From contig JAEOUG010000027.1 of assembly GCA_016839445.1 (NCBI GenBank), positions 35,113 through 99,112 on the forward strand: DNA of 64,000 nucleotides, given 5' to 3'. This document shows, piece by piece, positions 44,301 through 58,878 of the stretch; within the stretch, counting starts at the first letter, position 1; every line of letters begins with the position of its first letter. The DNA is from Candidatus Thorarchaeota archaeon. GTDB taxonomy: Archaea > Asgardarchaeota > Thorarchaeia > Thorarchaeales > Thorarchaeaceae. The notes under the pieces were generated by a model, which was not told where the DNA came from, did no database searches, and saw nothing but the letters and a program-made list of their open reading frames with translations. The position numbers and the translations under genes are program-made.

Positions 44301-44418
44301 CGGAGAGCTGCAGAACCACAGCCTTCTCCTTGCAGCGCAGAAGAGCATCTGACATCCAATCGAGATACTCCTCTCTGTCCACGAACACCTGCTCAGATGG
44401 CTCGAAGCGCTTGTACAA
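41323..44418 (-). CDS. STAND-class P-loop NTPase with winged helix and TPR array (NLR-like)
   Basis: FVDRE..L, Walker A GIGGIGKS, Walker B LFLLDHFE, GGNPF (GxP), LHEL (MHD-like), multiple TPRs (A..LNN.G). Confidence 0.8.
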   Translation of the reverse strand: MYKRFEPSEQVFVDREEYLDWMSDALLRCKEKAVVLQLSGIGGIGKSALLDYWNRTIETTIRLDCRQHADFYSRLNVLAKGAVLLGLRLPRFDVLWQIRLRFVEGLEPVKEEGREWAKEVLVAIPFIGSLASIGGAIGAISAKVAPKLKSRYGELAAWLQDRLGKNHIESLLEILWKAPRHAQFLFMDALAEDLNSRSESDRALLFLLDHFEHVDDASKDWKYGGKKISEAELWCVFLSQVRNSVGVLATRLAISTALRDDVSLEQHELTELDEKSSVELLHERSVNDGDLQRRIVSVSGGNPFVIDAICDMLETERVSLEDVDCLQADTLGEVRLRTWRRLFDHVEGLHEPVNHAGLLPHFTKSVMTIVSPSLTSDQWDRLRRLSFVREQSDGTYVLHELAKELVLSELGPRLKDAVEDVADSLETASKERSDLSLLGMAFSAYSLASGEIAIARLREAVDELIESHLADDAHHLLASTVLSDGMGRCVIQGLRGKALFLSSRYAEAEVELQSAIEHLRGLGTEMTTAQRDFLADCLSQYGRMLLEVPDQEGAQKSFKEAIAIRRELADEEPDKYGLGLAWSLIVRAQSMLNRWPDEAEKHALESLNILSGIDDPGSKSLLRAKSISFSVLALVRTNLFRWSEADEPNQRSLEIQRQLLEMAPDAPREISAYARLLNNVGALQEFRGHELETRNLFEQALKLRRAAVELQPQTYRPSQAITLQNVAFFYLRTLRQPQMAETYFRESLVTIRDQLGYYYSYARDLLEDQERFRDSLAALELMPKEVPGHWAGQIGYALSGLAYACLEQGRTQEALDLVAKAVSIRRDLMRHLDWGLGFGLSLNVAGIIYSSAGEVSRGEESLIEAIEVLQETRIDMADTQLYLASSLNNCGVLLLQTGRLGEAIERLTEAVRVLRDYMVRAPELHPGWVAEILTNLAVAQKQKGGFDEAEPLLREALDLESRLIDIAPESYLYYREHTLRVYSSLLRLRGDEEGAETHLKESLRLFERFSDLGMTPSPVDAENEARFLLIY

Positions 44419-44586
44419 GACCCCTCGCCTTGTGAAACGTAATGCTCTGTATTAGCTGAGGTATCTCATAAGCCAGTCGGTGTCCCATCTGGAATCGGCT
44501 TAGAGAGGATCAGGAGCAGCCATGAGCCAGAGGTGGTCGCAATACTTATTGCAGACCGAGTCCTGCAGGTTCAGCCGGGGAAGCGA

Positions 44587-45810
44587 ATGAGGAGAAGCCG
44601 GGTACGGTCGGTTCTACTATTCTGCATCATGCTCGCTCTCATTGGAGCCCCAGCTGGTGCTCAATCTGCAGCGAACACAATCGTGATCGACTATGGCGAT
44701 ATACCCGAGTCACAGCCCATCCTAGAAAGCTCGATAAATCTGGCTGAAGGCGAGGACGTCTATGGTCCCTGGAGTATGGGCAATGGTACGTTCTACTTCT
44801 CCATTCGCAGCCTCGCAAATGATACTATGACTCTGCTCAGATACGATGACGAGGGGTTCTCGCCACGGCTGGCAACTCACCCAGATCGTGTGATGGGACC
44901 TCTATACGTCAACGGTTCTTTGTATGCCTTCAGTGCTGAGCTATTCATTAACAGAACCGTCTTCATGCTGATGCAGATTGACCCAGTTGGTGACCTCATC
45001 ATAGTAAGAAACGTCACAATAGAGGGTGGGCTATTCACATTCCGAGCAGTTGTCGGGCTAGATGACGCAGTCTATCTTCTAGGAGATCTGTCATCCCCCT
45101 ATCTTGACACCGAGGCTCACATATTGAAGATCTTCATCAATGGCACAACCGCCTGGAATCAGAAGCTTTCAGGACATGGTTGGGACTATGATGTAAGCCT
45201 GCTGCAGGACGGAAACCTGTTCCTAGTGAATATGACCCACATCGAACTCAGAGACAGCAATGGCGAACCCGTGTGGTTGCGCGAGTTTCCTGACGGAAGG
45301 TACGGCGAGAAGGTTCTAGCATATAACAGCAATTCAGCCATCGTGAAGTCCTACTGCTACTCAGACCCAAGCGGGTGCAGCATCTACAGGTATGACCTAA
45401 CCGGGAACATGATTGCGAATACAACGCTTCTTGGAAGAACTCCCACCGGGTCGGAAGCAGGAGTCGGCGCCAATGTCTACATCGAGGGCGATGCCATCTA
45501 TGCTCTTGTCGGCTTTGACACTACCATGAAAGACCCATTTCTCATCGAGCTCTCCAGTAATCTGGAATTCGTGAGCAGCTCCTCGCTGTTCGTTGTCGAC
45601 CTTCGTTTCTCCCATCTGGCCTTTTCCTCCGACCATTCGCCTCTGCGGTTCGGTATTGGAGAGACAGAAGATGGGGACTTGTTTTGCGCATACAGCTTCA
45701 GCGAGATTCGTGGAAGCACGTCCTTCCCGTTCTTGCTCCTCGTCACTATGCTCTCACTAGGCTGCATCGGGGCGGGTGTGCTGATTCTGTATTTGCTCAG
45801 GAGAAGATGA
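44587..45810 (+). CDS. Secreted, C-terminally anchored beta-propeller-like protein
   Basis: Signal peptide, beta-rich repeats (G...W), C-terminal TM + RRR. Confidence 0.6.
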   Translation: MRRSRVRSVLLFCIMLALIGAPAGAQSAANTIVIDYGDIPESQPILESSINLAEGEDVYGPWSMGNGTFYFSIRSLANDTMTLLRYDDEGFSPRLATHPDRVMGPLYVNGSLYAFSAELFINRTVFMLMQIDPVGDLIIVRNVTIEGGLFTFRAVVGLDDAVYLLGDLSSPYLDTEAHILKIFINGTTAWNQKLSGHGWDYDVSLLQDGNLFLVNMTHIELRDSNGEPVWLREFPDGRYGEKVLAYNSNSAIVKSYCYSDPSGCSIYRYDLTGNMIANTTLLGRTPTGSEAGVGANVYIEGDAIYALVGFDTTMKDPFLIELSSNLEFVSSSSLFVVDLRFSHLAFSSDHSPLRFGIGETEDGDLFCAYSFSEIRGSTSFPFLLLVTMLSLGCIGAGVLILYLLRRR

Positions 45811-45816
45811 ACCTGC

Positions 45817-45862
45817 AAAAAGAGAAGTGCTGGAAGGAGGGGCGACAAGCGCCACCCCCTAG
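45817..45862 (+). repeat. Direct repeat copy R1 (degenerate) of vhuU-downstream element
   Basis: AAAAAGAGAAGTGCTGGAAGGAGGGGCGACAAGCGCCACCCC versus R5 consensus. Confidence 0.65.
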
Positions 45863-45884
45863 ACAAGACACGATCCAGAATTGT

Positions 45885-46277
45885 CTAGTATCGTGATCGA
45901 CTGCTGTGCTCTTCGGCAGACATGTCTACTTCTGAGTTCACTTCGTCGATTGGTTCTTCGGCTTGGGCAATTATACCGAACTTCCCCAATTGTAGTCGTA
46001 GATTGCCTTTGAAGAGACCTGTATAGCCATTCGTGAGGGTGTAGGTTGCACCGTCCTCAATTGCATCGATGGTCTCGTTCCAGATTGGCATCAGGATAAC
46101 CCCTGTCGAGTCTCCAACTAGGGCATCTACTACTCGGTATATCTCGCCATTCTTTCGGGACTCGACCTCGCGTTCTTCACTAGTATTCAAAACCTTGAAG
46201 GTGATGTTTACGCTTTTCATTCCGGGCTTAAGCTCGGCAATAGTAGCCTCAACGGCTTCTGCTGTGTTGTCATACAT
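45885..46277 (-). CDS. ssb: Second single-OB SSB paralogue lacking the Gly/Arg tail
   Basis: EATIAELKP...VGDSTG...PIW...NGYTGLFKGNLRL; clearly homologous to 25091..25660. Confidence 0.88.
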   Translation of the reverse strand: MYDNTAEAVEATIAELKPGMKSVNITFKVLNTSEEREVESRKNGEIYRVVDALVGDSTGVILMPIWNETIDAIEDGATYTLTNGYTGLFKGNLRLQLGKFGIIAQAEEPIDEVNSEVDMSAEEHSSRSRY

Positions 46278-46496
46278 TGTATATCACTCGCTTGTGCGAA
46301 TTCAGGTCATTGAAAACTAGAGTAGTCCTCGAGTGGAAGTAGAGAAAGGTCGTTAATCTTCAGTAGAACCAGTCTGAGAAGGTCTGCATAGTTGCTATGC
46401 CTGTAGGTGGAAGAGGCGGGAGTTTGCTTAAGGGCTTATGCATCGGCCTAGAAACATGTACGACTGCTCCATCTGCCAAGCAAGATGGCTCTTAGT

Positions 46497-46530
46497 GAGA
46501 AGAGAGAGGGGATGGAAGGAGGAGCACTCA
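46497..46530 (+). repeat. Direct repeat copy R2 (5' half only)
   Basis: GAGAAGAGAGAGGGGATGGAAGGAGG matches the R4/R5 left half. Confidence 0.6.
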
Positions 46531-46598
46531 GGGCCCTAGGCGCAACTGATGAAAACCAATAAATCGTTGTCTGCGGAAGACTTGCAGGGGCATGTCAA

Positions 46599-48935
46599 GT
46601 GGGCAATCTCCAGAAACGATTGAGTGACTCTATCTCCTCTTTGGGAATCGTGAGTTTCTCCGTCTTGCCGATTGCCGTGGAGACTGTCTTGTTGCAGCAG
46701 CGTTTTGACTTCCGACTGGCTATGGTCATCGCTCTAGCCACGTTCCTTGCCGCAGATTACTACTTCCGCCAGATGTCAGAGATCTCTGTAAATCCGGGTA
46801 CCGAGATTTTCGCATGGTCCATCATGATTAGCATGGGAGTCCTCCTTCCACTTGTCTGCCTTGGTGCTCTTTCGTGGCTTACTTCGATGCCGCTATGGAA
46901 CATAGTGATGACCATTCTGTCTTTCTTAACCCCCGTTCCACTCGGGCTCTGCTTAGCAGCTGTCGTTCCTGTGTCCAAGGCCCCCATTGCGGTTGCCGGG
47001 GAAATCCAGAAGTGGCCAGCAATACTAGTACCACTGGTATGTTTGTCATACACATTGGCGCTGTCTCTGGCTGTTGTTTTCTCTGTAGATATCATGCTGC
47101 TACACCTTCTTGGGGTTCTCGTGCTACTACCTAGTCTATGGGCAGCTAGGAAAGAATCGACAAGACCTCTGCCGTCTCCCTCGGATCTCAGAGCTGGACG
47201 GAAGACCCTCCGAGATGTCATGCGCAGGAGGCTTGCGAACGCATCAATGCCCTCGCTCATCATAATGTTAGTATTCCTCCCAGGTGCATTCCTAGCCATT
47301 CTTCTCTCGGGACTCTGGTCTTTCGCTCCATTACTAGCCCTGCTTTCGATTATGGTGTCCTATGCAGGGCTCACAGCACTTGTCTGGGGAGTTCGAAGAT
47401 CCGACGACATGATTCAATTTGGGGTTGATGGACTGGCTCGCTACTTGTTTGGACAGCCTCACAGGATAACCTCCAGCCCAGGATTGATGCTGCCCACAAT
47501 GGTGTATTCACTCCTCTATCTGTCACTCACGGCAAGTCATCAGCTCTATACAGGTCCAATCCTGTTGCTCTCACTCCCAGTGTTCTTTCTTGCATCTCTC
47601 GGTGCCGCATTCAGGGTTTCTGCTGCAACTCCTAGGAGAATCTGGCAGTTACTGGCAACGGTGCTAGGAATGCTGGGAGTCTGCATCCTTGTCGGCCGAT
47701 CTCTGATTGCGCTGCTAGGAGCACAAGATCTCTACCACATCTGGATGCACGCGGGTGTCATTGTGACCCTAATTGCGTATGCAGGGAGCTGCGCGGGAGG
47801 CCTCCTAAGTCGACGAGTGCTTGCGATGTATTGCAGGAAGAGGCTTCGAGAAGAAATCACAGTCGTGCGAGGGATGACGCGTAGTGGCGAGATAGAGTTG
47901 AAAGAGATTCCCTTTTCGAAACGGGATGTCAAGCTCCCAGGAGAGGGATTCCGAAGCGACGGAACGACACCTTCCACCGACACAGACCTTGGTGGGAGAT
48001 ACATCACCAATCTTGATCTTAGTCTGCTCCCGTTCCGGCCCAGCACAAGAATCAAACCGGTTAGCCGGGGATCCGGTTACTACCCCTCGCTTGAGTTCCA
48101 GCTCGCAATACTTCCCAACCCTGACCTACAGGACGAGGATACAGTGTCGGGAATCTATGAAGTGGTCGAGAAACTGGGCGCCGTTGGGAAACCCCTCAAG
48201 CAGGAGTCCAGCCTAGGGGAGCGCAGCACAATCCATCACATCGTGCATAGTCAAGGATGGGGTGAAGTCCTCAATAGAGTCAAGACCATCTATCCCCAAC
48301 TGGACCAGACTTGCAGGCGGCTCCTCAACCTCTGGGCATTGATCGAGTTGGAACTTGAGGAGTTTGGAGACCTCGAGTTCGACTTGAGGAGGATTCTTTC
48401 CAGGGCAATCAAAGAGGCCAAAGACCCCGCCCGGCTCGGTGAGATGGTGCGGGAGCAGTTGGTTCCTCTCCTCAAGCCGCATCTCCAGGGAGGCGGCACC
48501 ACATTCTTCATGAACCCAGAAGTGATGAGAACACATGGAGAATCGGCTCAGCATATTCCCATGATTCTTGAGTCGCGTTACCACGAGTTCAAGAGGGCAA
48601 GAGAGCAATGGCTGGCGTCTGAATCCAAGTCGGACCTGAAAGGTCTCTGGAGCACTTACTACGGCTTCTCTTTGCTCTCATCTTTGGAGCCTCCGGTTCG
48701 CCTCACGATGTATACTGGCGACGAACTGATGATTGCAGACTTGCTGCACCACGTCCAGTTGGCAGAGGACATCTCTCAATATGCTTCGCCTGCCGGAGAA
48801 GGTGGATCGCCGCAAGCATCTAGGAACATGATTCTTCTTCTTGTGGGCCAAGGCTTGGCTCCTCAAATCAGGAGTATCCTGAAAGACAGAACGGCCATCT
48901 CTGCAATGAAGCGAAAGCCATCAGGTCTCAGATGA
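46599..48935 (+). CDS. Hypothetical protein: about 12 N-terminal TM helices + soluble C-terminal helical domain
   Basis: Hydrophobic N-terminal 400 aa, single LRR-like ITNLDLSLL segment, soluble C-terminus. Confidence 0.6.
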   Translation: MGNLQKRLSDSISSLGIVSFSVLPIAVETVLLQQRFDFRLAMVIALATFLAADYYFRQMSEISVNPGTEIFAWSIMISMGVLLPLVCLGALSWLTSMPLWNIVMTILSFLTPVPLGLCLAAVVPVSKAPIAVAGEIQKWPAILVPLVCLSYTLALSLAVVFSVDIMLLHLLGVLVLLPSLWAARKESTRPLPSPSDLRAGRKTLRDVMRRRLANASMPSLIIMLVFLPGAFLAILLSGLWSFAPLLALLSIMVSYAGLTALVWGVRRSDDMIQFGVDGLARYLFGQPHRITSSPGLMLPTMVYSLLYLSLTASHQLYTGPILLLSLPVFFLASLGAAFRVSAATPRRIWQLLATVLGMLGVCILVGRSLIALLGAQDLYHIWMHAGVIVTLIAYAGSCAGGLLSRRVLAMYCRKRLREEITVVRGMTRSGEIELKEIPFSKRDVKLPGEGFRSDGTTPSTDTDLGGRYITNLDLSLLPFRPSTRIKPVSRGSGYYPSLEFQLAILPNPDLQDEDTVSGIYEVVEKLGAVGKPLKQESSLGERSTIHHIVHSQGWGEVLNRVKTIYPQLDQTCRRLLNLWALIELELEEFGDLEFDLRRILSRAIKEAKDPARLGEMVREQLVPLLKPHLQGGGTTFFMNPEVMRTHGESAQHIPMILESRYHEFKRAREQWLASESKSDLKGLWSTYYGFSLLSSLEPPVRLTMYTGDELMIADLLHHVQLAEDISQYASPAGEGGSPQASRNMILLLVGQGLAPQIRSILKDRTAISAMKRKPSGLR

Positions 48936-48945
48936 TTCGGTGGCT

Positions 48946-49010
48946 GAGAAGGGGACGTAGGGAGGCGCGACCAGCGAGCCGATGCAAGTGGTGCCAGACC
49001 CGGTCAGTTT
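48946..49010 (+). repeat. Direct repeat copy R3 (degenerate, extends into SECIS 3' arm)
   Basis: GAGAAGGGGACGTAGGGAGGCGCGACCAGCGAGCC...GTGCCAGACCCGGTCAGTT aligns with 55680-55746. Confidence 0.65.
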
Positions 49011-49099
49011 ATTTTGTCGTTATTTCTGACGAATTCTGAATCAGAAAGAGGAGAACCATTGAACGCTATTAGGCAGAAAAACGGACTGAGGTTTGACTT

Positions 49100-49645
49100 G
49101 TGATTCTAGCTGTTTTTGGTTTTGGGCTTCTGGCCTTTAGGATTTGGCTAGTTGAAGTAAAACTGAGAGAGGAGCTACAGTTCAGACGTCGGTATTTCAG
49201 TAGATTCTTCGCCTACTACGCATGTCTTGCACTTGCTTTCGAGCTGACTGCATTGCCTTTCAATAGTATGGTGATGGTTGCATTCCCAATTCTCATTGTG
49301 ACTTCAGTTTGGGATGTCAACTTCTATCGCAGGCTAGACACGCAGCCATACTGGTCAGCAAAGAAGCGGTGGGCAATTCTTGAGCGGCTAACACTGCACC
49401 CGCCGGTTGCCATTCTGGCCATCTATATGATCGTCACTGGCGCAAGGCATTATATCCAACCGCCAAACCTAGTTGTGTTTGTCGTTTCGGTAGTAGTCCT
49501 ATTCATACCCTTCTTCCTAGTAGACGAGAGATGGACAAAACGATACAAATGGCCTGAGGCGCTTGTTGTGATAGGTCTAGTAATACTGTCAGGACTGTCG
49601 TTACTGATAGCTGAAGCTGTTCTATGGGGCGTCCCAATATGGTAG
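49100..49645 (+). CDS. Hypothetical membrane protein
   Basis: About 6 TM helices; GAGGT SD before GTG. Confidence 0.6.
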   Translation: MILAVFGFGLLAFRIWLVEVKLREELQFRRRYFSRFFAYYACLALAFELTALPFNSMVMVAFPILIVTSVWDVNFYRRLDTQPYWSAKKRWAILERLTLHPPVAILAIYMIVTGARHYIQPPNLVVFVVSVVVLFIPFFLVDERWTKRYKWPEALVVIGLVILSGLSLLIAEAVLWGVPIW

Positions 49646-50934
49646 CTGATTCTCTCAAGTCACCAGAGACCTTCTGGGAGTACTTCAGGAGATCTCGTCT
49701 ACTCAAGTTCGCTCTTGCATTCAATCTCATCTACTTCTTTGGAGTTCTAGTGTGCTTTGCGATTCTTTTCCTTCAGGGTACTCTCCTTGACACTGTGTTC
49801 ACGGTGGACTTCAGAGTCTTCTATGAAAGCGGGCAAGTATTCGCGAACACACCTGGGCAAATCTACGAAGTGAATCCCAACGGCCTCCCTTTCAGATACT
49901 TGCCGTCTTTTGCAGGTTACATGGCGTTGTTTTCATTCATTCCAATGATCCCACTCTACTTGATCAATGTCTCACTCATGATGATCTGCAACGCGGGAAT
50001 TGTCTACTTCGTTTACCAGGTCTGCTTGCAGAACGGAGTAAGTGCTCAAACGAAGAACTTCGAAAGGACACTCGCTGTTGTATTCATGGTCCCCCAACAC
50101 ATTGTCAATATCATGTTTGGACAAATCACTCAACTGGCAATATTACTAGTGCTAGTCTCATTGACTATCCTCCAATCAAAAGACCACGATAGGATTCAGT
50201 GGTTCTTCATTGTTGGTGTCTTGATTGGTCTAGCATCGACAATCAAACCATTCTTCCTGGTCTTCTTTGTCTTCTTGATACCTGTCAGCATTGGAGGAAG
50301 ATTCGGCATTTCCGTATCACTTCGTCACTTTGCAGGAGTATCAATCGGATTCATGCTGACAATGGTCCCCAATCTCGTGTACTTCATCCTATACCCAGAT
50401 GCACTTAATGAATTCCTGGCAATCAATCTGACACAATCTCTTACAGGCCAGCATAGCACAAGTCTCACGAACCTGATACTTGCGTTTGCTCCCAATACAC
50501 AACTTATCAGACTTGGAATCATAGTGACTATTGGGGGCATCATTCTCTTCAGGAGCTACTTCGGATTTCTGAGAACCCCTCAGACACAGAAGTCATTTCT
50601 CCGACACTTCACTGACATGACATTCCTCGTTCTTCTGGTCTATCCTGATTCTTGGTTCCTCTTTCTTGCGGTCTGGTATGCATTTCTAGCTCCATCCATG
50701 CTCTCACTCTATGACTCACCTTCAATATCAGAAGATGAAATGAGGAAACTCGACTTGCTTTGGTCAGGGTCCAACAATCTGCTGGCATTCTTCTGGATTG
50801 GCATCGTTATCCATTACCTGATTCTTGGCTTCGATCCAATAATGCCAGTCTGGCTATTGATATTGTATGTTCTATACCAGCGAGCAATAGCAAGAATAGC
50901 ATCGCCACAAGACACTGCGGGCATGGGTCATTGA
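49639..50934 (+). CDS. GT-C fold glycosyltransferase family 87 (DUF2029-like)
   Basis: DFRVFY..G, FRYLP, GQ.., GLASTIKPF motifs; multi-TM. Confidence 0.8.
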   Translation: MVADSLKSPETFWEYFRRSRLLKFALAFNLIYFFGVLVCFAILFLQGTLLDTVFTVDFRVFYESGQVFANTPGQIYEVNPNGLPFRYLPSFAGYMALFSFIPMIPLYLINVSLMMICNAGIVYFVYQVCLQNGVSAQTKNFERTLAVVFMVPQHIVNIMFGQITQLAILLVLVSLTILQSKDHDRIQWFFIVGVLIGLASTIKPFFLVFFVFLIPVSIGGRFGISVSLRHFAGVSIGFMLTMVPNLVYFILYPDALNEFLAINLTQSLTGQHSTSLTNLILAFAPNTQLIRLGIIVTIGGIILFRSYFGFLRTPQTQKSFLRHFTDMTFLVLLVYPDSWFLFLAVWYAFLAPSMLSLYDSPSISEDEMRKLDLLWSGSNNLLAFFWIGIVIHYLILGFDPIMPVWLLILYVLYQRAIARIASPQDTAGMGH

Positions 50935-51025
50935 TTGCATCGAAATAAGAGTAGTTCCAGGCCACAACACACAGGATTCCATTGCTAGCAGAATCGGACT
51001 CATACCGATTGCTGCTCGTTGCGGA

Positions 51026-51484
51026 TCACCAGAAGCTTGGCATAGTGATTGGGAAGATGGAGGACCAGAGATAGAGAATTGTGAAGAGGATGATGAGCAC
51101 TGTAATCATTGCGACAAGAGTCTTCGAGTATCCCTTTGGAATGAGCATTTCCTCTCTATCCATCTTACGAGCAAGAGGAAAGAGACCTACGTAGAATGTC
51201 GCAATTGAGAGTACCAGTGCAAGCAAAACCCATGGATGAAGATCTGGCGAACCAAAGATGACGATAACTGCAAGCAATGAAAGGAAGATGACTTTCGAGC
51301 CCGCAACCCAGTTGATCAAGTACTTCGCGAAGTCGTTAATCTCCGGGTCAGATTTGGTCTTTTCCCATGCCTTGAAGACTCCAATTCCGTTAGCTCTAGT
51401 GGAATCCTTCTTGAAGTAAAGCATGAAGACATTGGATGATTCCAGAACCATAAACAGAGCAATCACTACAATAACGAGACTCAT
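51026..51484 (-). CDS. Hypothetical 4-TM membrane protein
   Basis: Hydrophobic helices; LESSNV..LYF, LINWVAGSK. Confidence 0.65.
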   Translation of the reverse strand: MSLVIVVIALFMVLESSNVFMLYFKKDSTRANGIGVFKAWEKTKSDPEINDFAKYLINWVAGSKVIFLSLLAVIVIFGSPDLHPWVLLALVLSIATFYVGLFPLARKMDREEMLIPKGYSKTLVAMITVLIILFTILYLWSSIFPITMPSFW

Positions 51485-51685
51485 TCTTCATGCAGAGATG
51501 GTTGTTCCATAAATACATGGTTCTGCCGTGAGTAGTTCGATCGTAGCTATGATTAGTCCTTGCCTCATCGTAAATTTAAAAAACGACATCATAGGAGAAT
51601 TCCAAACTTCCCTACAAGCACTATCGATGAGAATGATGGTAGAAATGATCCGTAGTGTCACATCTACAGGATAGTCTACGGGTCA

Positions 51686-52660
51686 GTGAATGAAGAAGTC
51701 GTATGGGTGAGAGAGTTGAGTAAGAGGAAGTACATCAAGCAATACAAATGGTCCAACATCTTAGCAATGATGCGAGGTGGGGGAAAGGAACTAGAAGAGT
51801 GTACTGATGACTTCGCAGGACGCTTGGTGGTTATCACAGGAGCCACATCAGGAATAGGGTATGCAACTTCAAGAGAATACGCTTCACATGGTGCAAACCT
51901 GCTTCTCATTAATCGAAATGAAGAGAAGTCGATTGCGCTTTGTGAGGAGATCCGCCAGGAATTCCAGGTAGAATGTGACTATAAGATTGCAGATTTCTCA
52001 CGATTGTCTGAAGTGCGCCAAGTTGGAAAGGAACTTCTAGAGTCAGACCTCGAAATAGATGTCCTTATCCATAATGCTGGCATTTACTCAACGAAGAAGA
52101 TAATCACCGAAGACGGTAACGAGTTGGTCTTTCAAATAGACTATCTTGGGTCTTTCGTCCTGAACTACATACTCAAAGATAAACTGAAAGAGCAAGGAAA
52201 GGCACGCATCATCTTTGTCAACTCAGAAGGTCATCGCTTCGCTGTTTGGGGCATTGGGCTGCATGGCCCTACATATGAGAAACGCAGACACTCCGGTCTG
52301 GGGAGTTATGGAGTAGCGAAAACAGCCCAACTCCTTTCAATGATCAAGTTTGCTGAATACTTCGAAGGTAGCGGTGTCACCATCAATGCTATGCACCCCG
52401 GAAATGTCAAGACAAGTAGTGGTTCGCAGAATGGACGGATCTATCGTTGGTACAAGAGAAACCTGATCGACCGTAGCGCAAAAGACCCACAAATGTCTGC
52501 GACAGCACTATACTATCTCGGAGTCTCGAAGGAAGTCGAGGGCCTGAGTGGGAAGTTCTTCAATCTCACCAAGGAGGAAGATCCTGCACCCCCAGCACGA
52601 GACATGGAGGTAGCAGAGGAACTCTGGCATAGATCAATAGAGATGGCGGGGTTGGAATGA
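51686..52660 (+). CDS. SDR oxidoreductase (retinol dehydrogenase-like subgroup)
   Basis: VITGATSGIG, LIHNAG, YGVAK (YxxxK), MHPG, LW..S C-terminus. Confidence 0.88.
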   Translation: MNEEVVWVRELSKRKYIKQYKWSNILAMMRGGGKELEECTDDFAGRLVVITGATSGIGYATSREYASHGANLLLINRNEEKSIALCEEIRQEFQVECDYKIADFSRLSEVRQVGKELLESDLEIDVLIHNAGIYSTKKIITEDGNELVFQIDYLGSFVLNYILKDKLKEQGKARIIFVNSEGHRFAVWGIGLHGPTYEKRRHSGLGSYGVAKTAQLLSMIKFAEYFEGSGVTINAMHPGNVKTSSGSQNGRIYRWYKRNLIDRSAKDPQMSATALYYLGVSKEVEGLSGKFFNLTKEEDPAPPARDMEVAEELWHRSIEMAGLE

Positions 52661-54258
52661 GCGATAACAATCAACGGACGATAGTCGTCGGCGGAGGCAT
52701 GTCAGGATTAACAGCTGCTGTATATCTGGCAAGAGCTGGTCATGACGTCCTTCTACTAGAGAAGAACAAAGAATGCGGTGGGCTCCTTAGTTCATTCAGT
52801 CGAGATGGGTTCACGTTTGATGCTGGAGCACGAGCAATCCTGAATGCAGGGATAGTTCGTCCTATGCTCAAAGAACTCGAAATCGAACTCGAGATGGTTG
52901 ACAGCCCAGTATCAATTGGAGTCGAGAACGATGTGATCAACCTTGATGTGGAAACCATCCTAGATGACTATAGACATCTGCTAGAGAGATTGTATCCCGA
53001 AAGCATCAGCGATATAGAGAAGATCATCTCCAAGATTGAGAGAAGCTTCAAAGACATGGCGATTCTGTATGGTATTGATAATCCCTATTTTCGAGACATG
53101 AAGAAGGATAGAAGCTTCCTCCTCAAGGAAGTCCTTCCATGGATGGGGAAGTTCATGTTCGCCCTACGTCGAATGAACAAGAATAACGAACCTGTTGAGT
53201 CGCATCTAGAGAAGCTAACTTCTAATCAATCCCTCATTGATATCATTGCTCAGCATTTCTTCAGAGAAACGCCAACAGCTTTCGCATTGGGCTACTTCTA
53301 TACATATACTGATTACAGGTATCCAAGAGGAGGCACTGGTGAGCTGCCACGGGCAATGGTGCGAAAAATCCTCGAACTAAACGGAGAGATCAAAACAGAA
53401 ACAGAAATCATTGAAGTCAATCCATCCGAGAAAACCGTTCGCGCCAGTGACGGCAATACTTACTCATTCGATCATCTCATCTGGAGTGCCGACCTGAAGA
53501 CACTATATCGAATCCTGGACACCAATGGTCTGGATGAAGATGTCACCCACGAAATATCCGAACGAAAGGAGTCTCTTCTATCAAAACGCGGGTGCGAGTC
53601 TGTCTATACGATGTTCGTTGGTGTAGATATGCCACTAGAGTCTTTCAGGTCTATTTCAAATGGGCACTTCTTCTACACACCATTGAAAACGGGCCTTAAT
53701 GAAACGCATACGTCAGAACTTGATTCCCTAATTGAGAATTTTGATAGTGTACCGAAGAAGCAAGTTCTGCAATGGTTGGATAGGTACTTCCAGCTCACAA
53801 CGTACGAGATCTCTATTCCTGCACTTAGAAACCCCGAGTTGTCTCCCGAGGGAAAAACTGGCCTAGTAATAAGCACGCTCTTTGAGTACGACTTGATCAA
53901 GAAAATCAAGGATGCCCTTTGGTATGATGAATTCAGAGCCGAAGTCGAGAACCGTATGCTGGATAACCTCTCGAATTCCATCTATCCAGGTCTGAAAGAC
54001 AAGGTAGTCTTCAAAGCATCTTCAACTCCGCTCAGTATCGAGTCGGTAGTAGGAAGTTCAGAAGGTGCGATTGTGGGCTGGTCGTATAAGTCACCTGTAC
54101 CGGTTGTAAGTGAGCTCCGAAAGATGGGAAGCGCAGTCAAAACACCAATTCCAGATGTATACCAAGCAGGCCAATGGGCATACAGTCCTGCAGGCTTACC
54201 TACTGCGATCCTTACTGGTTGGCATGCTGCTCAAAATGCAATGAAGGCGAAGAGATGA
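52657..54258 (+). CDS. Phytoene desaturase-like FAD-dependent oxidoreductase
   Basis: VVGGGMSGL, EKN..CGG..SF.RDGFTFDAG, YPRGG, STP, LY.AGQW..P.G.P.A..TG; ATGA overlap. Confidence 0.85.
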   Translation: MSDNNQRTIVVGGGMSGLTAAVYLARAGHDVLLLEKNKECGGLLSSFSRDGFTFDAGARAILNAGIVRPMLKELEIELEMVDSPVSIGVENDVINLDVETILDDYRHLLERLYPESISDIEKIISKIERSFKDMAILYGIDNPYFRDMKKDRSFLLKEVLPWMGKFMFALRRMNKNNEPVESHLEKLTSNQSLIDIIAQHFFRETPTAFALGYFYTYTDYRYPRGGTGELPRAMVRKILELNGEIKTETEIIEVNPSEKTVRASDGNTYSFDHLIWSADLKTLYRILDTNGLDEDVTHEISERKESLLSKRGCESVYTMFVGVDMPLESFRSISNGHFFYTPLKTGLNETHTSELDSLIENFDSVPKKQVLQWLDRYFQLTTYEISIPALRNPELSPEGKTGLVISTLFEYDLIKKIKDALWYDEFRAEVENRMLDNLSNSIYPGLKDKVVFKASSTPLSIESVVGSSEGAIVGWSYKSPVPVVSELRKMGSAVKTPIPDVYQAGQWAYSPAGLPTAILTGWHAAQNAMKAKR

Positions 54259-54276
54259 TTTGCAGAGGAGAGAGAG

Positions 54277-54696
54277 ATGTCTGAAGTTGATAGACTCAAG
54301 CATAGAGCTGCAAAACTCCTGTTGACATGGAGCATTGCTAGCATCGCGATTGGAGCTGTTTTGAATCTGGGTTCACCAAATGCAATCATTGAAGGGATTG
54401 GCCTTCAAGCTGTCATATGGGGAGTAATCGACGCGGTAATTGGATTGTCTATTCTTTTCCGGCAGAAGGAGCAATCAGTTGAGAAGATAGCAAAGACAGT
54501 TGCAGCAAGCATTAGATTGGATATCATCTTCCAGGTTGCGGGTCTCATTGTGGTTCTGGTGTTCTTGCAGAATCCGTATTATATGGGAAATGGGATTGGA
54601 GTCATTATTCAGGGATTCTTCCTTCTTCTTCTGGACAGCAACTACATGAAATCACTCAAGAATCTCGAAATGAGAACTACAACTCAAGACTCGTGA
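54277..54696 (+). CDS. Small 4-TM membrane protein
   Basis: W...SI, GLQ..IWG.ID..I, G.G.GVIIQG.FLLLLD. Confidence 0.65.
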   Translation: MSEVDRLKHRAAKLLLTWSIASIAIGAVLNLGSPNAIIEGIGLQAVIWGVIDAVIGLSILFRQKEQSVEKIAKTVAASIRLDIIFQVAGLIVVLVFLQNPYYMGNGIGVIIQGFFLLLLDSNYMKSLKNLEMRTTTQDS

Positions 54697-54710
54697 ATAT
54701 GCTCTAGAGT

Positions 54711-54765
54711 GAAAAGAGAAGGGATGGAAGGAGGTGCGACGAGCGCACCCTTGCAGGGTGTGACC
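54711..54765 (+). repeat. Direct repeat copy R4 (near-identical to R5)
   Basis: GAAAAGAGAAGGGATGGAAGGAGGTGCGACGAGCGCACCCTTGCAGGGTGTG. Confidence 0.85.
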
Positions 54766-55328
54766 TAGTTCGCTGAATTCTTACTCTCAGCATCCCTTAG
54801 GAAATTCTGAAGCAAATTCCCAATGCCAAGCATTTCGCACGTTGATTCTATGTAGTCGAAATCAAGCTTCTCGGCATTTCGCTTTACTATGCCAATAGCA
54901 TCTCTCAGATCCTGCTCTCCTTGAAAGAGAATCTTGTTCACAAGGGTATCTTCTGCGGTGCCAATTCGTATCGGTGTTCCAAGCAAATCGACCATCATTG
55001 CCCGGTCTATCGTCATCCTATCAAAATTGGAGTTAATCCCTTGAATATCAAGTCGAAGCAGTGTGTCTTTGAAGAATGATGTGCTATGTGATCCCTCTTT
55101 GAACGCAGCTCTGATATCTGAGGCTGATGCCACAAACCCCCGTGAGTTCAGAAATTCAGCGAATGGAGAGATTTCTGCGTCCTCCAGTTTGAGGATGAAA
55201 TCTATGTCTACTGTGGTTCGGGGTACACCATGATACATCACGGCCACTCCACCAACTATGACATAGAGGATGTGGTTTTCATTAAGATATGAACAGACTG
55301 TCTTAAGAATCTCTGAGAACTCTTCCAT
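54765..55328 (-). CDS. Pol-beta-superfamily nucleotidyltransferase (DUF6036/AbiEii/MenT-like)
   Basis: IVGGVAV..HG.PRTTVDID motif, ED.LV.K, QDLRD. Confidence 0.8.
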   Translation of the reverse strand: MEEFSEILKTVCSYLNENHILYVIVGGVAVMYHGVPRTTVDIDFILKLEDAEISPFAEFLNSRGFVASASDIRAAFKEGSHSTSFFKDTLLRLDIQGINSNFDRMTIDRAMMVDLLGTPIRIGTAEDTLVNKILFQGEQDLRDAIGIVKRNAEKLDFDYIESTCEMLGIGNLLQNFLRDAESKNSAN

Positions 55329-55481
55329 CTATCTTTCACCCGCGATTTGTAGCGCCAACGCCGAAAGCTTCAATCCCATTATCAGAGTTTCAAGACCTGT
55401 GTAGCGCCTAGCTTCGATGGCGGTTCTAACCTGTTCAAGGTCCCTTCTGCGCCTTACTTGTTCAGCTATCGGGATTGTCAT
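55329..55481 (-). CDS. 50-aa helical protein, putative antitoxin (not in ORF track)
   Basis: MTIPIAEQVRRRRDLEQVRTAIEARRYTGLETLIMGLKLSALALQIAGER; its TAG directly abuts the nucleotidyltransferase ATG. Confidence 0.6.
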   Translation of the reverse strand: MTIPIAEQVRRRRDLEQVRTAIEARRYTGLETLIMGLKLSALALQIAGER

Positions 55482-55675
55482 TCTCTTCTCATAGTAGTAT
55501 TCGCTCTGCCTCTCATATATTCTACTATCATGAAGGAGTAGAAAGAAATAAGGAATGATGGAAATTCACTATAATTAACTCCAGTTTCCGAAAACCTCCA
55601 TCCACCGCCAGTCACTAGTTACAACCGGAATAGCTCCTGGCTCTTCATAATGACATCTAATGTCTTTCAGTTGAT

Positions 55676-55730
55676 AGAAAAGAAAGAGGGATGGAAGGAG
55701 GTGCGACGGGCGCACCCTTGCGGGGTGTGT
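55676..55730 (+). repeat. Direct repeat copy R5 = hairpin/pyrimidine terminator region of the mvh-vhuU transcript
   Basis: AGAAAAGAAAGAGGGATGGAAGGAGGTGCGACGGGCGCACCCTTGCGGGGTGTG; minus strand gives GGTGCG/CGCACC hairpin + CU/U tract. Confidence 0.85.
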
Positions 55731-55765
55731 CGGACCCGGCTCAGTTCTTTACGCCGGACCTTCAT
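55729..55765 (-). promoter_or_regulatory. Eukaryote-like SECIS element (3' UTR of vhuU)
   Basis: AUGAA-GGUCCGGC-GUAAAGAACUGA-GCCGGGUC-CGAC: AUGA/GA tandem core, 8-bp helix, unpaired AAA in apical loop, about 80 nt downstream of the in-frame UGA. Confidence 0.75.
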
Positions 55766-55914
55766 CCTCCGCCGGTCACTAGCTCCTTCCGGACTATCTC
55801 GCGACCCTCATCGTCAACTACGACGAGATGAGCGCCGCATGATAGTCAGCAGTCATAGCACCGCACAACCATCTCGAGGAGGTTGAGCAGTCCTTCGGGA
55901 ATTTCTTCCGTCAT
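55762..55914 (-). CDS. vhuU: VhuU selenoprotein (separately encoded C-terminal Ni-binding peptide of [NiFeSe] hydrogenase); Sec at codon 23 (55848-55846)
   Basis: MTEEIPEGLLNLLEMVVRCYDC-U-LSCGAHLVVVDDEGREIVRKELVTGGG; matches the R.YD.[C/U]..C..H motif missing from upstream mvhA. Confidence 0.9.
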
Positions 55915-55938
55915 TGTTTTCACGTTTCCATTCTTTCC

Positions 55939-55945
55939 TTTATAA
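55939..55945 (-). promoter_or_regulatory. TATA-like box TTATAAA about 25 nt upstream of vhuU ATG
   Basis: AT-rich box at archaeal spacing for a leaderless transcript. Confidence 0.45.
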
Positions 55946-55959
55946 TCCTCAGGTGGTGG

Positions 55960-57276
55960 CTAAGTCTTCACCATCGGATCTGGTAACTTGAGGCTCTCAT
56001 GGGCCTTGTCCTCAAAGATCTGCTTCGCAGCATCCATGAGCGACTTCTCAATACCAGCAATGTTGTTGTTCGTCGCGACAATCAGGTTCGCCTTGGTGAG
56101 CATGCCATTCTCGTCGCTGACATAATTGTGCAGGAGGGTTCCTCTCGGAGCCTCCACGATTCCGACTCCTTCGCCGGCCCTCGGTTCGACATCTGAGAGT
56201 TTCACGTCTTTGCTGACGATTTCGGGGTCCTCAAGAAGCGTCTTGATCCACTCAGCAGCCTGGACCATCTCAACCACCCTTGCATAGTGGAATGCAAAGG
56301 TATGGTGGGAGGGTCGACCGATGAGCTCACGCATCTCCTTCAGCGCCGCGTCTGCCAGAGGTGTAGCCATCTTGTCTGCCACATTGCACCGTGCTAGCGT
56401 GTTGGCTCGCCAGATGCCCTCTGGGTATCCGGCAGGCTTGTAGTAGATATGCGTAGCATAGCTGTGCTTCGGGACGTGCTCGCCATAGTACTTGGTGTAG
56501 TCATGAGGATCGAAATCAGCAACAATCTTGCCTTCGGGATCCATGACTCTGACTGTCCCATCGTAGATGTCAAGCACACCCTTGTTAGCCAAGCCGAGGT
56601 AGTAGGTCGGTGTGACTGCAACCTTGGTGATGACATCGATGTAGTCGTTGACTACTGTCTTAGCAAGAGACACAGTCTTGTTGATGTTCTCAAGCATCTC
56701 AGGAACCCTGCCGAGCCAGAGGTCTCTATCCTCTTCTGACATGGGAGTCAGCTGACCACCAGGAATGGCTGTCGTCGGATGGATGGCCTTGGCACCCACG
56801 GTCTTGATCAGCTCTTGACCGAACTCCATGAGCTTGATGGCCTGAACAGCGACATCCGGCAGATGCTTCAACACTGCAGCCACATTCCTGACAGCTGGGT
56901 CCGCAAAGGGACCGAACACGAAGTCCGGAGCCGCAAGAGCGTAGAAGTGGATAGCATGGCTTGAGAGCTGCTTAGCCTCAATCATTAGCCTGCGTATCTT
57001 CACAGCTGCAGGAGGAGGTGTGACACCCCATGCATCCTCTACTGCTTTCACCGAGGCGAGGTGGTGAGGAATCGGGCAGATACCACAGATTCTTGGAGCG
57101 ATTCTTGGCGCCTCCTCCATGGGGCGACCTTCAAGAAACTTCTCGAAGAACCGGGTGGAGTTCACATTGAACTGAACATCCTTCACCTTTCCATCCTTGC
57201 CAAGTTTCAGGGTGAGCGAACCATGGCCCTCAAGACGGGTCACTGGGTCGACTCGTATCACTTTGTCTTCAGTCAT
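55960..57276 (-). CDS. mvhA: Group 3c [NiFe(Se)] hydrogenase large subunit, C-terminally truncated (VhuA type)
   Basis: TRLEGH, RICGICPIPH L1 motif, EAPRG.L.H; no DPCxxCxxH at C-terminus. Confidence 0.92.
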   Translation of the reverse strand: MTEDKVIRVDPVTRLEGHGSLTLKLGKDGKVKDVQFNVNSTRFFEKFLEGRPMEEAPRIAPRICGICPIPHHLASVKAVEDAWGVTPPPAAVKIRRLMIEAKQLSSHAIHFYALAAPDFVFGPFADPAVRNVAAVLKHLPDVAVQAIKLMEFGQELIKTVGAKAIHPTTAIPGGQLTPMSEEDRDLWLGRVPEMLENINKTVSLAKTVVNDYIDVITKVAVTPTYYLGLANKGVLDIYDGTVRVMDPEGKIVADFDPHDYTKYYGEHVPKHSYATHIYYKPAGYPEGIWRANTLARCNVADKMATPLADAALKEMRELIGRPSHHTFAFHYARVVEMVQAAEWIKTLLEDPEIVSKDVKLSDVEPRAGEGVGIVEAPRGTLLHNYVSDENGMLTKANLIVATNNNIAGIEKSLMDAAKQIFEDKAHESLKLPDPMVKT

Positions 57277-58196
57277 TTCTTCTTGGCCTCCTCGCGCTTG
57301 ATCCTGATTTGTCCAAGGTGGCTCGTTGGATAGTCGAACCTCCAGAAGGTTCCTAGCGGATCCTTAACCTGGTCGACGAGGTCCTTTGGATCCATTGGAG
57401 CGTATGAGCCCAACATGGATATTGAGTTGGCTCCGTGGTCCTGCATGATTGGAGGCGGCGGACCGAAGCAACCACGACACGTGGCGCCCTTGTTCACACA
57501 CTGCCCCTCACACAGACCCCAGGTTGCAGAGCCTACGCAGATGTATCCCTGCTCAAGCAGGCATCGGTCAGGGTCAGCGATTCCCTGATAGGGTCTCAGA
57601 ACCTTCTCGATGGGAGTCTCCTTCTTCTCACGGTTGCAGTAATGACACACGGTGTGAGGAGGCAGCTCGATTGGCTTGCCCTCAAACAGTGCGGTCAGGG
57701 CCGTGAGAATCAGTTTCGAGGTTGGCGGGCACCCTGGAAGGTAGATCTCGAAGTCCACAAACATGTTGTTGGGCTTCACCACATCAGCGATGGGTGGTAG
57801 GTTCTCAGTGGGAACCTCTCCTCCAGTGACGGTCTTGTTCTCGCGGAACTTGACGTCGTAGCACTCCTCGATGTCTGAGAAGTTCGCCATGCCGGGAATA
57901 CCTCCAAAGCATGAACATGAACCAAAGGCAATCATGGTTTGACACTTCTCTCGCATCACCTTGAGAAGGTGTATGTCCTCCTCAGTGCGAGCCATTCCTT
58001 CGTATATTCCGAGGGCGATTGACTTGTCCGGATAGCTTTCCAAGTGATGAAGTTTGAAGTCAGCCACGGCCTGCCAGTACTTGATGTCAAGCTTTGGCAA
58101 GACATCGGCCAAGGCCAGATGTATGTCAACGAGACTCTGGAAACAGCCCCAGCAGGAGCTGCCCTGTCCTAGTGCTACAGATACCGGTTCAGTCAG
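57273..58196 (-). CDS. mvhG: Hydrogenase small subunit MvhG/VhuG, probable CTG start
   Basis: In-frame upstream extension LTEPVSVALGQGSSCWGCFQS supplies the CxxC cluster ligand; GSCSCFGG, PGCPP, C..C..CLL..G..C.G, CRGC.GP. Confidence 0.9.
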   Translation of the reverse strand: MTEPVSVALGQGSSCWGCFQSLVDIHLALADVLPKLDIKYWQAVADFKLHHLESYPDKSIALGIYEGMARTEEDIHLLKVMREKCQTMIAFGSCSCFGGIPGMANFSDIEECYDVKFRENKTVTGGEVPTENLPPIADVVKPNNMFVDFEIYLPGCPPTSKLILTALTALFEGKPIELPPHTVCHYCNREKKETPIEKVLRPYQGIADPDRCLLEQGYICVGSATWGLCEGQCVNKGATCRGCFGPPPPIMQDHGANSISMLGSYAPMDPKDLVDQVKDPLGTFWRFDYPTSHLGQIRIKREEAKKK

Positions 58197-58198
58197 TC

Positions 58199-58435
58199 TT
58201 AGACCTCCTTGATTCCATACGTGAGTTCCCCTTCTTCCTCCGCCACAACCTCAACGTCACCCCATTTCAGCATCCCCATCAGATTCCAGACAACCAATTC
58301 CTTGGCGTATCTGGTCTCCTCAGAGATCTTGGTGACATTGGAAGGTCCCTTCTGGAGTATCGCCTTGATTGCAGCGCGCTGCTTGCGAACGTCTCCTCGC
58401 TTCTGAGAGAAGAACTCCTTGAACATTCTGCTCAT
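58199..58435 (-). CDS. Small winged-helix protein in hydrogenase operon
   Basis: I...LQKGP.NVTKISEET......VVWNL..M.K.G.V; ATGA overlap with mvhD. Confidence 0.7.
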   Translation of the reverse strand: MSRMFKEFFSQKRGDVRKQRAAIKAILQKGPSNVTKISEETRYAKELVVWNLMGMLKWGDVEVVAEEEGELTYGIKEV

Positions 58436-58878
58436 TTCCACTCCCTCTCAATCGGACCCAACTGCTTCACCTGCTCAACTAATGTCCTCACACCATCTGC
58501 GAAGATCTGAGCCTCTGAAGCAGAAGCCCACTGGAGTCGAACCCTTCTTGGGTCCAATCCAGCCTGTTCCAGGGCCTTTTCCATCAAGGCCCATCTAGCA
58601 CGTAGTTTCAGATTACCGCTTGTATAATGGCAGTCGCCTGGATGGCAGCCTGAAACTAGGACTCCATCTGCACCCATATCGAGTGCAGCCAATATGAACT
58701 CAGGACTAATCCTTCCTGTGCAGTTCACCCTCAGGATGCGTGCGTTTGTCGGATACTGTATTCTACTTGTTCCCGCAAGGTCGGCGCCAGCATAGGAGCA
58801 CCAGTTGCAGCAATAGGCCACAATTCTTGGCTCCCAGGCATCGCCGGACTCTTTGACTTCGGTTGTCTCTGCTGTCAT
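58432..58878 (-). CDS. mvhD: MvhD [2Fe-2S] subunit
   Basis: YCCNWCSYAGADLAG, RVNCTGRI, GCHPGDCHY, WASASE. Confidence 0.93.
   Translation of the reverse strand: MTAETTEVKESGDAWEPRIVAYCCNWCSYAGADLAGTSRIQYPTNARILRVNCTGRISPEFILAALDMGADGVLVSGCHPGDCHYTSGNLKLRARWALMEKALEQAGLDPRRVRLQWASASEAQIFADGVRTLVEQVKQLGPIEREWK

Follow-up and report, generated by a model that had tools for sequence, protein, structure and literature searches.

Unrelated genes parted by short direct repeats stand at the 3′ end of the hydrogenase selenoprotein gene vhuU in a Candidatus Thorarchaeota archaeon, and the locus raises the question of how such an arrangement is built. It lies in a stretch of 64,000 nucleotides, here called the window (assembly GCA_016839445.1, contig JAEOUG010000027.1, positions 35,113 to 99,112 of the forward strand). 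A first-pass annotation made from the letters alone had described five direct repeats of the vhuU terminator/selenocysteine insertion sequence (SECIS) flank that delimit four unrelated cargo blocks, and had proposed serial site-specific insertions by an integron-like system. Our comparison with related genomes points to a lineage-wide, additive gene-cassette array at the vhuU 3′ end that is most likely driven by homologous recombination, a reading to which, with its descriptive part included, we give an even chance. The window's genome (G000; G and L numbers label genomes and loci) comprises 2.91 Mb in 190 contigs with a GC content of 52.6%, and all genomes compared are metagenome-assembled genomes (MAGs), 71-99% complete.

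The repeat is the 3′ end of vhuU

The vhuU gene is a separate 50-codon gene on the minus strand (55762-55914), with a selenocysteine (Sec) TGA at 55846-55848 and a TGA stop codon at 55762-55764. Pfam does not recognise the 50-residue product. A PDB sequence search places it at the C-terminus of [NiFe]-hydrogenase large subunits of solved structure (best match 3zfs_A, E 1.4e-6), and in this alignment the in-frame TGA occupies the metal-binding cysteine position of the hydrogenase C-terminal motif. Folding of the 3′ untranslated region (UTR) gives, in mRNA order, the SECIS (55720-55772, minus strand), a 7-bp GC hairpin and a C/U-rich tail. The SECIS is of the eukaryote-like Asgard kind: its AUGA...GA core, which overlaps the stop codon, comes with a helix, an A-rich apical loop and an in-frame UGA in the gene. 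Its apical-loop type agrees with the one reported for Thorarchaeia hydrogenase genes in the part of PMC11227280 available to us. Among 36 native Thorarchaeota sequences, compensatory changes are found at 8 of 9 pairs of the SECIS helix and at 2 of 4 in the hairpin.

The core of the repeat is in addition complementary to the vhuU codons directly before the stop (GGAAGGAG with CUCCUUCC, 55783-55790 with 55690-55697 in the minus-strand RNA). RNAalifold predicts from these strands an 8-bp long-range helix that would enclose both SECIS and hairpin. This helix is 93% paired in the 36 sequences and nearly invariant, one pair being compensatory in 2 of them. An Rfam scan of 44-64 kb matched none of the known RNA families, all its hits being noise at E>4, and there is no tRNA in the window.

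The repeat as first described on the plus strand is the reverse complement of the distal vhuU 3′ UTR and aligns to the native element, which bears out its assignment to the terminator/SECIS flank. Repeat coordinates are given on the plus strand, while the parent UTR and all five copies have their mRNA sense on the minus strand. The native copy, R5 (55676-55751, E 1.4e-19), consists of the C/U-rich tail (55676-55698), the 7-bp hairpin (55699-55717) and the 3′ half of the SECIS. R4 (54710-54783) is near-full, with tail, hairpin and what is left of the SECIS 3′ arm, and was found by pattern, by blastn and by profile (E 1.5e-16). A 40-nt pattern is matched exactly by R4 (54721-54760) and R5 (55688-55727) and by 0 of 100 shuffles, and the two copies are 83% alike over 63 nt without gaps. 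A 28-nt pattern allowing up to 3 mismatches hits only R4 and R5 in the 2.91-Mb genome (reversed control, 0), and blastn-short of R4 against the genome returns R5 second after itself (43 nt, 95%, E 2e-13). R4 and R5 are thus genuine copies beyond doubt.

The remaining copies are shorter or more degenerate. R1 (45816-45856) retains a purine tract and the core together with the first hairpin half, and R3 (48946-49015) has an eroded core with recognisable hairpin and SECIS 3′ arm. R2 (46497-46530) keeps only the left part, a purine tract followed by the exact 13-nt core. In the same blastn-short search R1 appeared over 35 nt (88.6%, E 7e-4) and R2 over 20 nt (95%, E 0.045). Leave-one-out profiles of the window copies recovered R1 at E 0.15 and neither R2 nor R3 at E<=10. 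Such profiles are too weak to judge R2 and R3, so we used a profile of the genus instead, made of 33 copies from 18 loci to which G000 contributed R4 and R5 only. In the window this profile found R1 (45816-45856, E 0.004) and R3 (48961-49015, model positions 24-78, E 0.015). Against the whole genome its top four matches were R5, R4, R1 (E 0.049) and R3 (E 0.18), all on the plus strand at one locus within 10 kb, and the next match had E 3.9. The profile from relatives thus supports R1 and R3 as probable genuine copies. R2 is the weakest of the five and was missed by every profile (leave-one-out, genus and whole genome). Its core GGATGGAAGGAGG is an exact 13-nt match at 46510-46522, preceded by the purine tract, and of the four occurrences of this 13-mer in the genome three are at this locus; since R2 stands at the boundary of a block, we accept it with moderate confidence.

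The repeat is therefore restricted to one 10-kb locus in a 2.9-Mb genome. A genome-wide search had been named as the check that could expose the motif as a generic terminator or a miniature inverted-repeat transposable element (MITE), and it is neither. R4 is wedged between convergent genes, and the stop codon of a nucleotidyltransferase (NTase) gene lies inside it.

Arrays of vhuU-derived copies across Thorarchaeota

A search of forty relatives at the DNA level revealed additional repeat copies grouped next to vhuU in many genomes of the same genus, and the flanks were fetched and oriented like the window. Counting profile matches at E<=0.01, with a profile that favours copies that keep the core, we found 133 copies in 52 Thorarchaeota loci, 37 of which hold 2-6 copies. 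No repeat match on the opposite strand was present at E<=0.05 in the loci examined, and on multi-copy metagenome contigs all copies lie on one strand in every contig. Successive copies enclose 81 intervals, whose median length is 1255 nt (interquartile range 829-1932). When open reading frames (ORFs) of 80 aa or more are counted, as assigned by a greedy longest-ORF rule, 50 intervals contain a single one and 19 contain two. The cargo ORFs use both strands, 90 of 137 on the minus and 47 on the plus strand.

The exact core gave 40 matches in 22 of the 28 genomes of the genus and none in the reversed control. Where a genome has several such matches, they share contig and strand, save for single extras on other contigs in fragmented assemblies (G041, G042, G008, G004, G012, G010). 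A set of 76 metagenome loci fetched by a pattern of the core plus half of the hairpin reduces to about 25 true arrays, some of them duplicates, since 43 lack a profile match and represent chance 18-19-mers and several more have a short match only. The one viral contig that matched this pattern was judged a chance hit, with similarity over about 20 nt only and no related genes.

The array is found genus-wide and in neighbouring lineages. Outside the genus the native copy often stands alone, as in the complete chromosome CP070658.1 (L077) and in L072, L073, L056 and L051. No array was seen at paralogous Thorarchaeota vhuU loci or at vhuU of Loki- and Atabeyarchaeia, L082 having one extra partial copy. 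In three cases (G002, L034; G014, L033; and L197) the vhu operon is missing and the array ends directly at a PEPCK gene, its last copy stopping inside the SECIS loop.

The cargo families include Ssb-like OB proteins, HepT/NTase and PIN-like pairs, an AMP-dependent ligase and AsnC-type regulators, together with LVIVD beta-propellers of about 1000 aa, leucine-rich repeat and Kelch proteins, an alpha/beta hydrolase and a block of SDR, FAD oxidase and DUF6992 genes. The R1-type short variant also lies at the 3′ end of Ssb-like genes in G004, G015, G023 and G003, and 11 of 24 Ssb-like genes have a repeat copy within 220 nt. Three further observations concern individual loci. L137 carries the same HepT/Pol-beta NTase pair twice, in adjacent cassettes and opposite orientations (about 1960-4160, oriented), with the bounding repeats in one orientation. 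A partial ORF at a contig end near the array of L194 (4058-4540) matches the N-terminal domain of double-jelly-roll major capsid proteins (PF16903, E 1.4e-13). A few kb beyond the arrays, the left flanks of G005 (L030) and G015 (L031) contain a formate dehydrogenase-like set of molybdopterin oxidoreductase, FrhB/FdhB-like and FlpD genes.

Shuffled cassettes and resolved insertion events

Clustering of the cargo proteins (BLASTP E 1e-5, 50% coverage) places the same clusters in differing orders and combinations among related arrays. A DUF6036 NTase with a small ORF adjoins vhuU in seven genomes (G000, G023, G003, G005, G015, G016, G018) and is internal in six loci (L137, L145, L149, L182, L187, L197), and a subtilase cassette is vhuU-adjacent in G006 and G020 and internal in G002, G022 and G018. 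The first-pass annotation had named two outcomes that would speak against gene capture, a motif scattered through the genome and a gene order invariant among relatives; neither was found, because the motif is confined to its locus and cargo order varies, with presence or absence bounded by repeats and some sites nearly empty.

The pair L066 and L068 resolves one rearrangement. Both loci have the same subtilase cassette on one side and vhuU on the other; the two cassettes in between, one with an alpha/beta hydrolase and one with an 806-aa gene, stand in opposite orders at 93-96% identity. The repeat copy that follows the 806-aa gene on its right does not differ between the loci: in L066 it is the working vhuU UTR, in L068 an internal copy. 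The first repeat of the two loci is identical for about 95 nt and continues as cassette-specific sequence from near the vhuU stop codon.

A second comparison involves G001, G013 and L182. Where G001 has a single copy, G013 carries a cassette of 1821 nt with 26 nt of core plus half-hairpin directly repeated on its two sides. The left flank of L182 is 99.9% identical to G013 over 5.9 kb, and L182 has two more cassettes, an NTase pair and an LVIVD protein. The G013-type native UTR is kept in L182 as an internal copy up to the stop codon, and vhuU is now followed by a UTR of the other hairpin type. In at least this case the inserted DNA supplied a new SECIS and terminator to vhuU, so that the proposal that each insertion regenerates the terminator holds for L182 against G013 and agrees with the copy that is native in L066 and internal in L068. 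With one, two and four cassettes beside vhuU in G001, G013 and L182, the nested series fits addition at the gene-proximal end, the alternative being deletions in the reverse direction.

The junctions of the three resolved events differ, lying at the core and hairpin or about 60-80 nt off at the stop codon. Homologous recombination fits such differing positions better than one fixed crossover point, and the proposal of site-specific insertion is not upheld by junctions that fall at different repeat positions in different events.

Public run data, read as assembled contigs, confirm the arrangement in the window, one contig spanning 54413-55797 from R4 through cassette D and R5 to the start of vhuU. 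Contigs from three public runs diverge from the window sequence precisely where R4 and R5 begin on the left (loose ends 54710 and 55679), which fits other neighbours in co-occurring strains or species. A reported joint of 45497 to 56157 was set aside, its 21-nt side being too short to trust.

Shape and conservation of the copies

To describe the copies we scored them against a 235-nt model of the native region, using 67 copies not classed as native, of which about a dozen reach the model end and are probably unlabelled native copies. The distal ends are fixed, 62 of 67 starting at model positions 3-11, and the proximal ends are spread from 43 to 207, with 17 at 43-62, 11 at 69-80, 8 at 91-97, 3 at 111-126, 5 at 134-137, 8 at 148-153, 2 at 166 and 1 at 207. 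Long internal copies align to the vhuU 3′ UTR plus its last codons. A fixed distal and a variable proximal end would be expected from a single crossover, if the incoming segment extends from the distal end of the UTR to a cassette-specific point and selection keeps the vhuU UTR whole.

Regardless of what stands beside them, copies share about 83-85% identity in the 13-nt core, while the rest decays. Part of this conservation is ascertainment, because the copies were found with a core-dominated profile, and in native copies it may reflect the role of the core as one strand of the possible long-range mRNA helix. When repeat variants were compared with the left and right neighbour, averaged over all pairs, no clear linkage was seen beyond the core, the clusters being too coarse. 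Two features read from the window hold in part. Covariation of the hairpin recurs at genus level as a C:G to U:A change in 11 of 36 native copies, but it may be inherited from two native types and so not be independent. The copy nearest the native one is the most conserved in the window, whereas 22 arrays together show a weak trend only, which is not significant (Spearman -0.26, p 0.09).

A recombinase search and the origin of the array

The first-pass annotation had seen no recombinase in the window, and the scan of 134 flank proteins agrees with it, none matching a recombinase or transposase family. A six-frame search of the 28 genus genomes, reading through stops, found PF00589 (tyrosine recombinases) in 8, PF00239 (serine recombinases) in 8 and PF01797 (Y1 HUH) in 1, with no tyrosine, serine or Y1 HUH match on any array contig. 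In the window's genome PF00589 gives only an 18-bit partial match at a contig end. Twenty of the 28 genomes, including some that are 93-97% complete and bear arrays, have no detectable tyrosine recombinase and hence no XerA-type gene either, which is unusual for archaea, assembly gaps being a consideration. A wider search for tyrosine and serine recombinases, suggested at the outset, thus yielded no enzyme for the arrays, and most genomes of the genus lack these families.

These results are ordered best by the following scheme. The repeat unit, read on the mRNA strand, comprises the last codons of vhuU, the SECIS, the GC hairpin and the C/U-rich tail, and a cassette is typically one gene, about 0.5-2 kb, between same-orientation copies of this segment. 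DNA that carries a copy of the segment, either a looped-out circle or a linear piece of a relative's array, would recombine with a resident copy; looping-out, re-entry and import from the arrays of relatives could all proceed by homologous recombination. Selection would maintain an intact vhuU 3′ UTR and thereby fix the distal end of each copy, and internal copies would decay afterwards. Most likely no dedicated integrase would be involved, and 25-140 nt of homology would be used by the cell's general machinery of homologous recombination. We rank homologous recombination first, a trans-acting enzyme second and decayed elements third because no recombinase was found and the junctions vary.

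Several points weigh against this scheme. Homologous recombination is arrived at by exclusion, and the absence of a recombinase is not proven, since the MAGs are 71-99% complete. The duplication that distinguishes G013 from G001 is exactly core plus hairpin, as a site-specific event would give, and the conserved core could be a protein-binding or crossover site. Strains that swap entire array segments by way of flanking homology can blur the original junctions, so variable junctions are compatible with a fixed primary site. No circular intermediate was seen in the public assembled contigs. The number of loci overstates their independence, because some represent the same or a near-identical organism assembled twice (e.g. 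L145/L041 and L182/G013). A fragment that looks like the end of vhuU, its final codons and stop region (55593-55645, minus strand; positions 83-137 of the long native model, E 0.003 genome-wide), lies within cassette D, about 30 nt left of R5, and seems closer to the vhuU ends of other species than to that of G000 itself. Its placement does not fit a simple single-crossover picture.

The most serious alternative, which we regard as possible if on the unlikely side, is a dedicated site-specific recombinase of an unrecognised family, with its gene elsewhere in the genome, that acts in trans on the core and hairpin, possibly as folded single-stranded DNA, and would make the array a functional integron analogue. 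It would explain why the core is the best-conserved part and common to nearly all copies, why copy orientation is strictly uniform, and why the cassettes are integron-sized and mostly single-gene. The 26-nt duplication around the G013 cassette, exactly core plus half-hairpin, and the hairpin pairing, which is kept in 85% of internal-copy cells, also agree with it. However, no candidate gene was found, and tyrosine, serine and Y1 recombinases are absent from most array-bearing genomes. Two well-resolved events have junctions about 60-80 nt from the core, near the vhuU stop, the proximal copy ends spread over >100 nt, and the conservation of the core can be explained otherwise, by ascertainment and by its native mRNA role. 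The broader claim that the locus is a capture platform, integrase-less or with a new recombinase, in which the SECIS/terminator segment is the attachment site and each cassette brings a spare functional SECIS/terminator for vhuU, an archaeal integron analogue independent of IntI and attC, strikes us as doubtful.

A decidedly unlikely alternative holds that the arrays are the decayed remains of serial integrations at the vhuU 3′ end by integrase-carrying elements (proviruses, plasmids or tycheposon-like elements) that have since lost their integrases. Integrases that insert at gene 3′ ends classically leave such partial 3′-end copies together with a replaced functional 3′ end, and tycheposon arrays with partial tRNAs are described in the part of bioRxiv 10.1101/2020.12.28.424599 at hand. 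The nested series from G001 through G013 to L182 resembles additions beside the gene, and cassettes C and D have a foreign GC content. Against this, no integrase or fragment of one was found in or beside the arrays examined, six-frame searches through stops included, and it is for want of any such remnant that we place these elements third. Moreover, the cassettes are single genes of about 1 kb and not element-sized, and single cassettes relocate without an element backbone, as between L066 and L068.

It is very unlikely that the copies are kept only as terminators or insulators, arising by local duplication and ordinary rearrangement with no capture of genes. On the minus strand each copy indeed reads as a GC hairpin with a C/U-rich tract containing U runs behind it, and copies stand directly 3′ of minus-strand cargo, the strand of 90 of the 137 cargo ORFs. 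Yet the motif is used nowhere else in the genome, copies also follow plus-strand genes, where they offer no U run, and foreign GC and clean repeat-bounded insertion polymorphisms need more than local duplication. Finally, a canonical integron, or an attC cluster without integrase (CALIN), of Asgard type is suggested by the array architecture and by the enrichment of integrons and CALINs in Asgard MAGs reported in the available part of PMC9668308, but is extremely improbable given a repeat homologous to a gene's 3′ UTR, cargo on both strands, no IntI in the genome or on array contigs, and no inverted attC core sites on inspection of R5, R4 and about 60 copies.

Cassettes and neighbouring genes of the window

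The order and content of the blocks between the copies are as first described. At the left edge of the array a 425-aa ORF on the plus strand (44533-45810, cluster c25) matches no Pfam family, and its homologue in G011 is a cassette between a repeat copy and the native repeat adjoining vhuU. Cassette A, with an interval GC of 48.2%, encodes a 130-aa Ssb-like OB-fold protein on the minus strand (45885-46277; PF21473, E 8.5e-17), which scores 123 bits, under the cut-off, against the NCBIfam single-stranded DNA-binding protein model. It belongs to cluster c2, which recurs in many arrays. A paralogue of this gene lies about 20 kb upstream in the window, outside the array (25548-25635 against 46165-46252; 88 nt, 75%). 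Cassette B is a single 778-aa ORF on the plus strand (46599-48935) that has no match in Pfam, NCBIfam or PADLOC and no homologue in the other loci clustered.

Cassette C (49100-54696) contains six ORFs on both strands. Three are at 49100-49645 (plus), 49624-50934 (plus) and 51026-51484 (minus), and Pfam assigns the others, all on the plus strand, as an SDR (51686-52660), a FAD amine oxidase-like ORF (52657-54258) and a DUF6992 ORF (54277-54696). Genes of this cassette are rearranged in G023, G003, G014 and G002 and bounded there by repeat copies. Cassette D (54765-55481, minus strand) combines a DUF6036 NTase (54765-55328; PF19502, E 2.5e-5) with a 50-aa upstream ORF (55329-55481) that is kept beside the NTase in 12 other loci at 57-86% identity, and the pair is toxin-antitoxin (TA)-like. 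The GC profile called for by the first-pass annotation gives 45.4% for cassette C and 44.5% for cassette D against 52.6% for the genome, under the 1st percentile of 5.7-kb windows and of comparably sized genome windows, respectively. By this measure both cassettes appear to be of foreign composition.

NCBIfam and PADLOC returned nothing for the cargo proteins of no known family. ESM Atlas gave weak leads for two recurrent ones, a surface Ig-like/CarboxypepD_reg-like protein and an RDD-like membrane protein, neither of them a recombination enzyme.

The operon to which vhuU belongs is of the hydrogenase/heterodisulfide-reductase type (55762-60635, minus strand). By Pfam it includes a large subunit without C-terminus (55960-57276, PF00374), a small subunit (57273-58112, PF01058), a FlpD/MvhD-type subunit (58432-58878, PF02662) and an HdrA-like gene, all on the minus strand. 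A 300-nt direct repeat in the operon region (60960-61259 and 63660-63959; 75% identity, 2.7 kb apart) probably reflects paralogous genes. Just left of the array, 41323-44418 encodes a 1031-aa STAND-type NTPase with TPR repeats (weak AAA_16/NB-ARC matches) and no PADLOC match.

Significance and comparison with known systems

Such arrays have no description in the literature we consulted on Thorarchaeota SECIS elements, archaeal integrons and Asgard mobile elements, of which the supplements of PMC11227280 and PMC9668308 could list loci. An Asgard genus largely without the usual integrases still builds a fast-turning island of accessory genes, whose cargo includes surface proteins, peptidases, TA-like pairs, Ssb-like proteins and enzymes. 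The repeat offers a defined short DNA segment for tracking how genes are gained and lost there, both in metagenomes and in enrichment cultures. A SECIS that can be exchanged horizontally within a cassette bears on the evolution of Sec-decoding signals in the lineage nearest to eukaryotes. Should a dedicated enzyme prove responsible, it would represent a new recombination system.

Phage 21 and e14 are integrase-encoding prophages that insert in the 3′ end of a protein gene, icd of E. coli, and carry a substitute for it. As at vhuU, the incoming DNA replaces the 3′ end of its target and the displaced original stays as a pseudo-copy on the far side. These are, however, single prophages with their own integrase, as opposed to a series of small integrase-less cassettes, and at vhuU it is a SECIS that is exchanged. 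Tn7-type elements insert downstream of glmS, in the terminator region. Both systems use the 3′ flank or terminator of a conserved gene as a safe landing site where islands may accumulate, but the vhuU array shows no transposase genes, terminal inverted repeats or target-site duplications, and its boundaries are long homologous repeats. Dispersed repeats of the MITE or repetitive extragenic palindromic (REP) kind, and generic terminators, differ in that copies of the vhuU repeat occur at the vhuU locus only, in the window's genome and in the genus.

With integrons and CALINs, as presented in the available part of PMC9668308, the array shares short, mostly one-ORF cassettes, structured repeats in one orientation, TA-like cassettes and a shuffled order. 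It departs from them in lacking IntI and attC architecture, in crossover positions that vary, and in cargo that is divided between the strands, 90 minus to 47 plus. Its repeat, furthermore, derives from a functional mRNA 3′ UTR and can replace it. The first-pass view of an integron-like system therefore does not extend to membership of that family, given the missing IntI, the missing attC-type core sites and the cargo on both strands.

The tandem islands at tRNA and tmRNA genes, represented by the Prochlorococcus tycheposons in the portion of bioRxiv 10.1101/2020.12.28.424599 available to us, are the nearer parallel. In both, partial copies of a gene 3′ end in one orientation part the cargo blocks, newcomers beside the gene push older ones outward, the older copies degenerate, and the accessory cargo differs between close relatives. 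The internal copies at vhuU are partial vhuU 3′ ends, and vhuU itself is intact with its SECIS. The two differ in target, which at vhuU is the 3′ end of a selenoprotein gene with a SECIS/terminator and no tRNA, in the size of the units, mostly single genes of about 1 kb, and in the vhuU arrays having no integrase of their own, intact or fragmentary, in 52 loci. Integron-like in architecture and yet not an integron, the vhuU array most resembles, by analogy, these tandem att-repeat islands at tRNA genes.

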